From a virus, in IMG/VR virus record IMGVR_UViG_3300044551_000008, positions 1 through 38,483 of that record: a stretch of 38,483 nucleotides of DNA. One strand, given 5' to 3'. Made by a program: the position numbers and the translations under genes. Below, piece by piece: positions 6,205 to 32,965 of this stretch. Position 1 is the stretch's first letter. Each line of letters starts with the position of its first letter. The notes beneath the pieces were generated by a model. That model was not told the origin of the DNA. It worked only from the letters and a program-made list of their open reading frames with translations, and made no database searches.

Positions 6205-6265
6205 GGTTCTTTAGCTCAGTTGGTAGCTAACCGTTCGGTCGCTGGTTCGAGTCCAGCAAGAACCA
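6205..6265 (+). ncRNA. tRNA-like element (61 nt) with perfect acceptor stem and T-arm, partial D-arm, and no anticodon arm
   Basis: GGTTCTT/AAGAACC forms a 7-bp acceptor stem. TAGCTCAGTTGGTAG is a D-arm consensus. GCTGG-TTCGAGT-CCAGC is a T-arm. Only about 11 nt (ACC-GUUC-GGU mini-hairpin) stand where 22-23 nt would be expected. Confidence 0.7.
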
Positions 6266-22042: not shown

Positions 22043-22465
22043 ATGGCAGATAAGTTAGATAGAATTATTGGAGATTACGTTAATGGCAGACTTGAAGCCA
22101 GAATAAAATCAATTGAAAGTAGATATCTTTATAAGCAAAAAGTAGATAACTTAGGCATCCGCACAGCTTATTCCGGTGGTTCGGAGCCTGAAAGTCATGT
22201 TTTAAATAAAGAAGCGCTTGAAAATGATGAGGAATTAATCAGATTAAGAGAATTGATAAGACAAATCGACATCTGGTATCTACCTTTGATTCAAGTTGAA
22301 AAGGAGGTAATAAGACTAAAATGTGAAGGATATAATGGCAGATACTGGTATCAAGTAATGCAAGAATTGGATGTTCAAGGATTTGAAGTTCCACAGAAGA
22401 AAGCTAAAGCTGCTTATTATAAATTTAGGAATGACATCTATTCTTTTGTTATTCACTTAATTTGA
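22043..22465 (+). CDS. alt: ArpU-family late transcription regulator (Alt-like)
   Basis: The 140-aa product is the last gene before the packaging module, as in TP901-1. The size and position fit Alt/ArpU. Confidence 0.6.
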   Translation: MADKLDRIIGDYVNGRLEARIKSIESRYLYKQKVDNLGIRTAYSGGSEPESHVLNKEALENDEELIRLRELIRQIDIWYLPLIQVEKEVIRLKCEGYNGRYWYQVMQELDVQGFEVPQKKAKAAYYKFRNDIYSFVIHLI

Positions 22466-22607
22466 GAGGGACAAAATAGGCAAAAAAAGAATCGAAATTG
22501 CCTAAAATTGGCACCTCAACCCTTGTTTTTGCTGATATACTTGTATTATGAAGTAAAAGGCAAAAGCACAAATTTCGGAAAAGTAAGGTTGAATTTGCTT
22601 CATATTA

Positions 22608-22682
22608 GTGGCTGCATGGTCAAGGGGTTAAGATACTGCACTTTTAGTGCAGAGGCGTGAGTTCGAATCTCACTCAGTCACA
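22608..22682 (+). tRNA. tRNA-Lys(UUU)-like gene with non-canonical junctions
   Basis: 7-bp acceptor stem GTGGCTG/CAGTCAC (one G-T). Anticodon arm CTGCA-CTTTTAG-TGCAG. T-arm GTGAG-TTCGAAT-CTCAC. GG is present in the D-loop. There is one extra nt at the T-stem/acceptor junction and the D-stem is weak. Confidence 0.55.
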
Positions 22683-22840
22683 TAATGGGTTGATAATAAT
22701 ATTCCCTTGGTTTGAATCCATAAAAACAGCTTGGCAACTTGCGACTGTACAGTGATTGTCGTTACATTCACAACAGGGTTATTTAATTTGTTGTCTATCT
22801 CGTCATAGACTTTGCTGACTAACCCATAGGACTTTCTAGG

Positions 22841-22913
22841 AGTCAAGGGCTTACAGCGTAGTAAGCATGGTACGGAAACGTAGGCGCTCAGGGTTCGACT
22901 CCCTGACTTGCTA
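22841..22913 (+). pseudogene. Degenerate tRNA-like element
   Basis: Perfect T-arm CAGGG-TTCGACT-CCCTG. Possible D-arm CTTA/TAAG. Instead of an anticodon arm there is a TACG-GAAA-CGTA mini-hairpin. An alternative 7-bp acceptor is TAGTAAG/CTTGCTA. Confidence 0.45.
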
Positions 22914-22988
22914 TTCGATTGCATTGCTTAATACCGATGCATGGAAAAATATTTAAATTATTTATTAGTCAGTTTACGCTGGCTATTT

Positions 22989-22997
22989 TTGATATAC
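22989..22997 (+). promoter_or_regulatory. Extended -10 TGATATACT upstream of the 276-aa moron
   Basis: TGnTATACT lies 33 nt upstream of ATG 23030. Confidence 0.4.
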
Positions 22998-23029
22998 TAT
23001 ACTTGATTAAATTTCAAGGAGAGTATGTT

Positions 23030-23860
23030 ATGAACAAAGAGATTAAAGAAGGTTTTGTTGAAGGGTTAATAGAAACTGGAAAAGATTTTGCCAAAGAACA
23101 GTTAGGGGAGTTGATCCCTAAAGTAGTTTCTGAAAGCTCTTTGCAATTCGGACTAGAAGTGGTAGGAGGCACGGCTATAGAAATGGTTCCATTTGTAGGA
23201 CATATAGCATCAAGCTATTTCACAAAAAGAAAAATAAAAAATGAGCATGAATTTATATCTGAAATTGCAAAGCGAGTAGAAGATATTGAAAAAAATATGT
23301 CTAGCAAAACGATTGAACAAAAAGAAATTTTAGACGATTTAGCTGTTTATGCTTATGAGAAGGCTATTCAAACAAATCAAGAAGAAAAAATTTCATATAT
23401 TGTCAATGGTTTTGTAAACATGACAAAGATTGATACTGTATCCGAAGATATAGCATACATTTATTATGATACATTGGAACAGTTAACCATCTTAGATATA
23501 AGTGTTCTCAAACTCTATGGAAAAGCTTATCTTGAAATAGATTCGGCAGCTAATTATTCAGAGATACTCGAACAGTTTGGGATAGAATATCATCAATATG
23601 ATGCAGTAAGAAAGAATCTCCAAAGAATTTCCTTATTGGAAGACTCGGAAGAAGAAAAATTTGATAAGCATTTTAAGGATTTTGTGAAAGTATTCAATGG
23701 TAATATGAAACTTCTCGCTTCTTTTAAAAATCCCAGAAAGTTTGATACCAAAGAGTTTGGGAAACTAAAAGATATCAAAGAATATCGACCAAGAGAAAAT
23801 CTAAGAATTTCAAAATTTGGTAAAGACTTTCTTAGATTCTTTGCTGAAGAGAATCAATAA
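23030..23860 (+). CDS. 276-aa hypothetical protein inserted between alt and terS; faint resemblance to Abi-alpha/DUF4393
   Basis: The ATG at 23030 follows AAGGAG. The 22919 extension overlaps the tRNA-like element and has no RBS. The gene has its own promoter and terminator. The family assignment is from memory only. Confidence 0.65.
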   Translation: MNKEIKEGFVEGLIETGKDFAKEQLGELIPKVVSESSLQFGLEVVGGTAIEMVPFVGHIASSYFTKRKIKNEHEFISEIAKRVEDIEKNMSSKTIEQKEILDDLAVYAYEKAIQTNQEEKISYIVNGFVNMTKIDTVSEDIAYIYYDTLEQLTILDISVLKLYGKAYLEIDSAANYSEILEQFGIEYHQYDAVRKNLQRISLLEDSEEEKFDKHFKDFVKVFNGNMKLLASFKNPRKFDTKEFGKLKDIKEYRPRENLRISKFGKDFLRFFAEENQ

Positions 23861-23888
23861 TACTATATGTGAAATTCATTTATATTAC

Positions 23889-32261: not shown

Positions 32262-32612
32262 ATGGAATTAACAATTAATGAAAAACAGTATGTTTTTATC
32301 TTTGGTTACCGATTCATTAAGGAATTGAATAAAAAAAATGAAGTCACAGAGCGTGGGATGACTTTAAAAGCCGGCTTAGATAATGCTTTGATGAACTTCT
32401 TTAGCGGAGATATCGAAACACTTGTTGAAATGCTAAAAACTGCGAATGCAACAGAAAATCCTCGTGTCTCTGAGAAAGGGATAGTTGAATGGATTGAAGA
32501 AAATGGTATTGATGCGCTTTTTGATTTAGTACTCGAAGAGTTAAAAAAGTCGGAATTTACCAAGAAAAAAACGTTGAACTTCGAGAAAGAAGTCAGCAAA
32601 AATCTACAATAA
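32262..32612 (+). CDS. Tail assembly chaperone (G-like)
   Basis: 116-aa acidic protein upstream of the tape measure protein gene. Confidence 0.7.
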   Translation: MELTINEKQYVFIFGYRFIKELNKKNEVTERGMTLKAGLDNALMNFFSGDIETLVEMLKTANATENPRVSEKGIVEWIEENGIDALFDLVLEELKKSEFTKKKTLNFEKEVSKNLQ

Positions 32613-32965
32613 CAGATTTTGACAAACTCTATGAGCAAGTTCAGTTAAATTGTTTGCGTTATCTCGAAATTGCTAATCTAAGAGATATAGAGCGCATGAC
32701 CATTTCGGAGTATGAATTAAGACTGAAAGCTTATAGGCTAAAAAGACTTGATGAGCAAGAATTTATTTACCAACAAGCATGGGCAAATTGGCAAGTTCAA
32801 TCAACTAAGCAACAAGGTAAGAAGCAAGTTCCAGTTTATTCGACCTTCAAGAAGTTTTTTGATAAAGAAAAATTTGAAAATGATATTTTAGGAATTGAAA
32901 CTTCGGACAGTACTTTTAAAAAGGACAACAAACTAATTAACCTCATGAAAAAAGCAAATAAGTAA
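32262..32965 (+). CDS. Tail assembly chaperone GT-like fusion made by a -1 frameshift at 32543-32549
   Basis: The -1 frame is open from 32525 to 32965. The A_AAA_AAG heptamer is in phase with the G frame. The 32654 ORF has no ATG or RBS of its own. Confidence 0.6.
32543..32549 (+). promoter_or_regulatory. Slippery heptamer A AAA AAG (-1 programmed frameshift site)
   Basis: Codons AAA (32544) and AAG (32547) are in the zero frame. This is the same motif type as in dnaX. Confidence 0.6.

Follow-up and report, generated by a model that had tools for sequence, protein, structure and literature searches.

In the virus record IMGVR_UViG_3300044551_000008 of IMG/VR, we identified a gene of the tRNA-Lys(UUU) type whose body is of the tRNA-Glu type. 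The window, by which we mean the whole stretch of 38,483 nt that was analysed, is a virus record of 38.5 kb that is complete and has terminal repeats, and the phage belongs to the P335 group of Lactococcus phages, with TP901-1, Tuc2009 and PLgT-1 as close relatives. The gene (element 1) lies on the plus strand at 22608–22682 and is followed on the same strand, at 22859–22913, by a 55-nt tRNA-like module that lacks an anticodon (element 2). Both sit in a 565-bp non-coding stretch between the gene for an Alt-type activator and a gene encoding 276 amino acids. An earlier description made from the letters of the window alone (the sequence-only reading) had proposed two elements, and both are real: element 1 by ARAGORN and Rfam, element 2 by conservation and covariation. 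We conclude that the phage carries a genuine tRNA gene in element 1. Comparison with host tRNAs indicates that it arose from a Lactococcus-type tRNA-Glu whose anticodon loop and closing pair were rewritten to those of host tRNA-Lys(UUU). The explanation we prefer, at a probability of roughly 0.45, is that element 1 is a late-expressed Lys tRNA unlike that of the host and that element 2 is a tRNA-shaped processing signal or a relic.

Across the window, the only tRNA called by ARAGORN was tRNA-Lys(ttt), at exactly 22608–22682, and the Rfam tRNA model RF00005 gave a full-length match at 22610–22680 with 48.9 bits against a cut-off of 29 (E 1e-7, whole window). ARAGORN was one of the predictors that the sequence-only reading had suggested as a check. 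The anticodon UUU occupies 22643–22645, and the anticodon arm (CUGCA-CUUUUAG-UGCAG) and the T-arm (GUGAG-UUCGAAU-CUCAC) are as first described. The standard tertiary partners are present (U8, A14, G15-C48, G18G19, U54-A58 and G53-C61). The D-stem, which had been called weak, consists of 3 bp plus A.A and has the same sequence as the D-arm of host tRNA-Glu; in the window copy C25 has changed to U (U22634), giving G10.U25. Likewise, what had been taken for an extra nucleotide at the junction of T-stem and acceptor stem is better read as a one-nucleotide deletion from the acceptor 3′ strand (position 67), which leaves C22615 (C6) bulged. The leader bases G22608 and U22609 pair with A22680 and C22681, which yields the 7-bp stem of the ARAGORN call, shifted by two.

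The gene carries no encoded CCA, and the host genes for tRNA-Lys and tRNA-Glu carry none either; in all three a U follows the discriminator. These shared features fit processing of the phage gene by the route used for tRNA genes without an encoded CCA, namely RNase Z cleavage and CCA addition. The discriminator is A in both possible registers of the copies from L. lactis phages; a copy from the viral contig L034, read in the canonical register, has U73 instead.

We compared element 1 with the tRNAs of L. fujiensis, a host species that carries a prophage copy of the element. Nucleotides 8 to 26 were identical to host tRNA-Glu at 19 of 19 positions. The variable loop has 4 nt (no residue 47) as in host tRNA-Glu, in contrast to 5 nt in host tRNA-Lys, and the T-loop likewise matches host tRNA-Glu. 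The D-arm motif marks tRNA-Glu in cellular genomes, including those of other bacteria, and the tRNA-Glu template was invariant in all 20 genomes of the genus Lactococcus that were searched. The anticodon loop and its closing pair follow another pattern. The family consensus, A31-CUUUUAA-U39, matches host tRNA-Lys(UUU) at nine of nine positions, and the equivalent stretch of host tRNA-Glu is C31-UUUUCAC-G39. Five stem-loop positions were changed from the Glu to the Lys pattern, which argues for past selection on Lys-type decoding or recognition. In the loop comparison with host tRNA-Lys that the sequence-only reading had recommended, the consensus is identical and the window copy differs by A38G. 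The tRNA-Glu origin of the body had been missed.

Of the five anticodon-stem pairs, three are unlike those of host tRNA-Lys, among them 29-41 and 30-40, and overall identity was 0.64–0.66 to host tRNA-Lys versus 0.68–0.71 to host tRNA-Glu. The consensus loop CUUUUAA has 7 nt, U33, a purine at position 37 and no Watson-Crick pair between 32 and 38; in the window it reads CUUUUAG. A Glu-type anticodon (UUC or CUC) is absent from every copy but one, the others having UUU. That copy, in contig L012 (4184–4258), equals the common phage tRNA except for U36C and reads as tRNA-Glu(UUC), and it keeps the Lys-type positions 31, 32, 38 and 39 together with the acceptor bulge. A relaxed-pattern scan of viral contigs for chimeras of a Glu D-arm and a Lys loop returned the same Lactococcus set only. 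We also observed that the acceptor strands of the L034 copy (727–798; ACCGACA/UGUCGGU) match the opposite strands of the acceptor of a host tRNA-Glu in L082 (1891–1962; ACCGACU/GGUCGGU) at six of seven positions per strand, which may be coincidence.

The same 75-nt block is present in TP901-1 (AF304433, 13134–13208), where it is unannotated, and in PLgT-1, CAP, D7138, D7893, D6867, Bacchus and other phages. The records of CAP, D7138, D7893 and D6867 annotate it as tRNA-Lys. The earlier remark that tRNA genes are not associated with TP901-1-like phages does not hold, given that TP901-1 itself carries one. A motif scan returned about 35 copies in viral contigs, and prophage copies were found in 4 of 20 Lactococcus species genomes. 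One Lactococcus species genome (G014) carries three separate copies of the hybrid tRNA, presumably in three prophages. In the collections searched, only Lactococcus phages and prophages carry the lineage. A ‘predicted unspecified tRNA’ appears in a published account of prophage phiKW2 (PMC3757294), and our literature search found no study on the nature or function of the element 1 tRNA.

We also compared the copies with one another. Fully canonical forms are those of L034 and L217, from an L. garvieae-type clade, with 67.1 bits and an unbroken 7-bp acceptor stem (ACCGACA/UGUCGGU). One 3′-strand base is lost in the Bacchus copy, leaving A5 bulged, and a different 3′-strand base is lost in the L. 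lactis-phage copies, leaving C6 bulged; the latter all scored between 48.6 and 55.3 bits, with the window copy near the bottom of this range. Among 16 distinct copies, 97% of cloverleaf cells were paired versus 24–45% in slid controls, and six pairs had changed on both sides, mostly through a single split of two clades. Within the L. lactis clade, variants found in several contigs keep pairing (G.U to A-U, G-C to G.U and U-A to U.G), and the disruptive variants are singletons (L006, L008, L017, L020, L026 and L036). The Lys-type loop is kept in about 90% of copies.

The position of the gene is also conserved. At about 30 of 43 loci the tRNA lies 145–322 nt behind an Alt homologue of 47–100% identity, with other genes upstream at about 10 loci, and the exact 75-nt block is retained across differing flanks and activator types. 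Per-site diversity (mean over 13 loci with the window's arrangement) was 0.203 in the leader, 0.018 in element 1, 0.026 in the next 43 nt, 0.113 in the spacer, 0.032 in element 2 and 0.362 downstream. The two elements are therefore islands of low diversity (0.018 and 0.032) against flanks of 0.11–0.36.

Upstream of the tRNA, most loci share a conserved block that contains a putative extended −10 of an Alt-dependent late promoter (TG-A-TATACT, 22533–22541, plus strand). Transcription would start near A22548, about 60 nt before the tRNA, as judged from this motif. Other loci carry a second promoter type (TG-C-GATAAT) that aligns in register with TG-A-TATACT. In TP901-1 the late promoter has been placed between alt and terS (PMC3753634).

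Element 2 was initially drawn as 73 nt (22841–22913). Its T-arm and the GAAA hairpin in place of the anticodon arm were correctly described, but its bounds are now 22859–22913, from sequence reading, family anatomy and pair counts. The acceptor stem has 7 bp (UAGUAAG, 22859–22865, with CUUGCUA, 22907–22913) and contains a wobble pair, U22862.G22910, that is unique to the window. The mini-hairpin UACG-GAAA-CGUA spans 22871–22882, and the T-arm UCAGGG-UUCGACU-CCCUGA (22888–22906) has a 6-bp stem. Acceptor and T-arm can stack as 7 + 6 bp (6–8 + 5–6 bp in the family), and there is no anticodon arm. The folding energy of element 2 alone was not significant (z −1.05), and its sole Rfam match, to the mascRNA-menRNA model, was below threshold (15.7 bits versus a cut-off of 42.5, E 3.1); the support for this element therefore comes from conservation and covariation.

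Element 2 belongs to a family of modules that share the acceptor UAGCAAG/CUUGCUA and the T-arm and vary in the centre, which may be a mini-hairpin, a 5-bp/7-nt arm (TP901-1, Tuc2009 and P335), a long composite arm or nothing. In 14 diverse modules the T-stem was 100% paired, with four of six pairs changed on both sides, and six acceptor pairs were always retained. A filtered degenerate scan found 83 bona fide modules in at least 71 viral contigs, of which only 19 also carry the tRNA nearby. In different phages, modules and tRNA precede the same downstream sequence, as if sharing one slot; the tRNA occurs alone in phages of the CAP type, and other phages lack both full elements. A hairpin-less module occurs in L035 and a 5′-truncated one in phage P335. 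An 88-nt ‘tRNA-Ala(CGC)’ called by ARAGORN in TP901-1 gave no Rfam match at E ≤ 1 and was reassigned to the module type with the long composite arm. In two viral contigs (L127 and L200) we found genuine 77-nt tRNA(CAU) genes with an encoded CCA and the acceptor AGCAAGG/CCUUGCU. By this acceptor match, they are a possible ancestor of the module family.

A third tRNA-shaped element lies beside the serine integrase gene at 6205–6265 (Rfam tRNA match, 37.8 bits). It has the acceptor GGUUCUU/AAGAACC and the T-arm GCUGG/CCAGC and lacks an anticodon arm. Its lineage is unlike that of element 2, but the two share a ‘top half only’ design.

The sequences establish anatomy, ancestry, conservation and position; transcription, processing, charging with Lys and any benefit to the phage are putative. 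In the scheme that we prefer, the tRNA would lie near the 5′ end of the late transcript, starting about 60 nt behind the putative promoter, and would be excised by RNase P and RNase Z and then completed by CCA addition. Its most likely role would be that of an extra decoder of Lys codons (AAA/AAG) during late protein synthesis. Decoding could then go on after cleavage or depletion of host tRNA-Lys, given that the stem and body of element 1 are unlike those of host tRNA-Lys. Element 2, as the top half of a tRNA, would most likely mark the late leader for cleavage by RNase P and RNase Z, or else be a tolerated relic of such a signal.

The sequence-only reading had proposed that element 1 might be a counter-defence tRNA. 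This role is plausible from the anatomy: a Lys loop is kept on a non-Lys stem and body, and the region around 40/41 differs from that of the host. For AriB, the nuclease of PARIS, the anticodon stem-loop is the recognition site and cleavage falls at 40/41; a swap of one stem pair confers resistance (PMC11464382). PARIS has been reported on lactococcal plasmids, with no report of a test on P335 phages (PMC11381338, PMC13064643). A wider version of the idea is that P335-group phages built a nuclease-proof or decoy Lys tRNA and keep a set of anticodon-less top halves in the same slot of the late leader, as a late-expressed kit. This kit would guard translation from, or soak up, systems of the host or of rival prophages that attack the anticodon stem-loop or the acceptor end, such as PARIS-like nucleases or AbiEii-type nucleotidyltransferases. 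We regard this kit as unlikely.

Several observations weigh against our preferred explanation. An uninterrupted 7-bp acceptor stem is absent from the window and from all L. lactis-phage copies, and the bulge may impair RNase P, lysyl-tRNA synthetase (LysRS) or EF-Tu. The fully kept Glu D-arm leaves room for charging by host glutamyl-tRNA synthetase (GluRS). The window-specific A38G (G22647) allows C32 to pair with G38, and RNAfold closes the loop to 3 nt; with this change and C25U, the window copy may be weakened. By our count, variant sites in element 1 fall on 7 of 17 positions in the anticodon stem-loop versus 8 of 58 elsewhere. This excess could reflect relaxed constraint on decoding or, alternatively, diversifying pressure. 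AAA is already the preferred Lys codon of the host, and the tRNA is missing from Tuc2009 and P335. Among 20 Lactococcus species genomes, in which plasmids are under-sampled, the AriB domain of PARIS (PF14491) was found in none, and no clear PrrC or RloC was found in the same genomes. The lone strong match to PF13166 (AAA_13) corresponded to PADLOC PDC-S06 beside a restriction enzyme and was rejected as an anticodon nuclease.

The alternative that survives best is that selection acts on the tRNA shape, that is, the acceptor/T minihelix and the elbow, and not on decoding. Elements 1 and 2 and the element at 6205–6265 would then serve as punctuation for RNase P and RNase Z, trimming the late leader and separating it from upstream read-through, or as look-alikes that occupy a host tRNA-binding factor or a toxin directed at acceptor ends. 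All three tRNA-shaped elements of this phage have intact acceptor and T-arms and two of them have lost the anticodon arm, the module family is wider than the tRNA, and its T-stem covaries around a centre that is freely replaced or deleted. The common slot ahead of the same downstream sequence, the concentration of element 1 variation in the anticodon stem-loop and a stable hairpin after the block point the same way. However, a pure processing signal would have no need of five directed changes to a tRNA-Lys loop that most copies have kept, and the phages that have only the tRNA, or neither element in full, also count against it. Moreover, an RNase Z cut would leave mRNA with a 5′-monophosphate, an end that is open to RNase J in Firmicutes. 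We consider selection on shape alone rather unlikely, if still the most serious competitor.

Decay of a tRNA cluster was among the explanations first proposed. In a fuller form of it, several acquired tRNA genes would be eroding, with element 1 now a pseudogene and element 2 a relic, both persisting only through linkage to the late promoter and recent recombinational spread. Part of this picture stood. Damaging point changes do occur in some copies, the window's included (A38G and C25U, with its low score), as do the six single-copy disruptive variants, and the P335 module is truncated and that of L035 lacks its hairpin. The acceptor deletion in every L. lactis-phage copy and the absence of the tRNA from Tuc2009 and P335 also speak for erosion. 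In contrast, the diversity of both elements is low compared with their flanks, compensatory changes occur in both, the variants shared between contigs keep pairing, the exact block survives across flanks and activator types, and one genome holds three copies. These results make decay of the whole cluster a doubtful account.

We also considered that the tRNA raises the capacity of tRNA-Lys(UUU) for Lys-rich late proteins. Lys makes up 8.2–8.8% of phage codons versus 6.7% in a sample of host open reading frames (ORFs), and the position of element 1 would imply late-timed expression. However, the AAA share of Lys codons was 0.77 in the phage, in early and late genes alike, and 0.81 in host ORFs. 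Compensation for codon usage was rejected on this ground, and the earlier suggestion of a codon supply for AAA-rich genes is not supported. AAA being the major codon of the host, and the Glu-type body being left unexplained, we regard a dosage effect as improbable.

Near the end of the tail-chaperone ORF (32262–32612) we observed an in-frame A_AAA_AAG heptamer at 32543–32549. From there the −1 frame is open into the ORF at 32654–32965, before the tape-measure gene, as expected of a G/GT frameshift site; tRNA-Lys would occupy both slipping positions. Element 1 could have a role in recoding, either by tuning this frameshift, AAG otherwise being held firmly by the tRNA-Lys(CUU) of the host, or by placing Glu at Lys codons through a Glu-charged body, the D-arm retaining all identity elements of tRNA-Glu. 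We consider such a role very improbable. Only four loci were usable and they did not support a link, the same slippery site was seen in a contig whose fetched part has no tRNA, the gene is missing from Tuc2009 and P335, and Lys-to-Glu errors across the proteome would be costly.

Our preferred explanation of element 1, a host-unlike Lys tRNA, has a parallel in phage T5, whose tRNA-Lys neutralises PARIS and is likewise a phage tRNA-Lys(UUU) with the anticodon kept (Burman et al. 2024, PMC11464382). A likeness of the same kind exists to phage tRNAs for which evasion of anticodon nucleases has been proposed (van den Berg et al. 2023, PMC10264068). In both the T5 type and element 1, the anticodon stem-loop region read by the nuclease differs from that of the host. 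Unlike the T5 type, element 1 has a body from tRNA-Glu and not a mutated tRNA-Lys, its loop equals that of the host and is not altered, its acceptor stem is bulged, and the phage, which is temperate and 38 kb long, carries it as a single tRNA; a counter-defence role of element 1 is putative. A second parallel is tRNA gene recruitment, or alloacceptor remoulding, in which an anticodon change switches tRNA identity, as occurs in bacteria and organelles. As in such remoulding, a tRNA-Glu-type gene now reads Lys codons, and the L012 copy (U36C) reads Glu(UUC) again. In contrast to it, the change took place in a phage, and positions 31, 32, 38 and 39 were converted besides the anticodon.

For element 2, the T4 species 1 and 2 RNAs offer a comparison: these are small, anticodon-less phage RNAs with tRNA-like ends that do not decode. 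Element 2 also keeps tRNA-like ends without decoding; unlike the T4 RNAs, it belongs to another lineage, lies in a late-operon leader beside a possibly functional tRNA, and swaps with the tRNA in one slot. In plant mitochondria, tRNA look-alikes called t-elements are cut by RNase P and RNase Z and form RNA ends (Forner et al. 2007, PMC1920247). The MALAT1 mascRNA (RF01684) is formed by the same two enzymes. Element 2 resembles t-elements and mascRNA in having an acceptor/T-arm and no decoding arm inside a longer transcript. The resemblance to mascRNA is one of design and not of sequence homology, as indicated by the sub-threshold score. Element 2 also differs from both in its bacterial host, in an acceptor sequence that is invariant across module types and in that its cleavage is putative.

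The existence of the tRNA was already known at the level of annotation. New, as far as we found, are the Glu/Lys hybrid, the fixed acceptor bulge, the occurrence of the gene in TP901-1 and the family of anticodon-less modules with covarying stems. Defeat of tRNA-cutting defences by phage tRNAs was demonstrated recently, for the most part in large virulent phages that encode many tRNAs. In the present case a single tRNA belongs to a group of small temperate dairy phages, among them the model phage TP901-1, in which the function of both elements is testable. With its Glu body and Lys loop, element 1 allows a direct study of the features of tRNA-Lys that host enzymes and defence nucleases read, and the look-alike family is a tractable case for the wider question of why tRNA top halves are retained by so many phages. 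In cheese making, P335 phages are a problem for the industry, and counter-defence, if true, would bear on the choice of resistance in starter strains.

The Alt-type late transcription activator (DUF722) is encoded at 22043–22465 on the plus strand (PHROG 2198, E 1e-59; Pfam PF05263, E 2e-58). The gene for 276 amino acids, which lies between the tRNA-like block and terS, occupies 23030–23860 on the same strand (phrog_11520, E 1e-124). It had no match in Pfam or PADLOC and so gave no functional tie to the tRNA. terS begins at 23869, directly after this ORF, and terL is next. An 84-amino-acid ORF on the minus strand (22670–22924) had no PHROG match and was taken as non-coding.

A terminator-like hairpin followed by a T-run closes the tRNA-like block (22966–22985, plus strand, from a consensus scan). 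It is followed by a second copy of the extended −10 TG-A-TATACT ahead of the 276-amino-acid ORF (22990–22998, plus strand, read from the sequence). This unit of hairpin and second extended −10 (22966–22998) is common to the phage and Tuc2009. At the equivalent place before terS, TP901-1-type loci carry a different hairpin and U-run (GGUUGUCC...GGGCAGCC UUUUAUUG).

Between the two elements, about 100 nt after the tRNA (22683–22790) are almost as conserved as the tRNA itself. Within the conserved 43-nt block that directly follows it lies a weak T-arm-like hairpin, UGG-UUUGAAU-CCA (22707–22719, plus strand), with the T-loop-like sequence GGUUUGAAUCC. The folding energy at 22683–22730 was no better than that of shuffled sequences. 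The 3-bp stem covaries (UGG/CCA here versus CGG/CCG in TP901-1), and the hairpin is possibly a relic of another tRNA. Farther downstream, at 22795–22820, unrelated hairpins occupy one spot, GUCUAU...AUAGAC in the window versus GGGAG...CUCCC in PLgT-1-type loci. Both types are followed by UUUGCUGA, one structure having been replaced by another.

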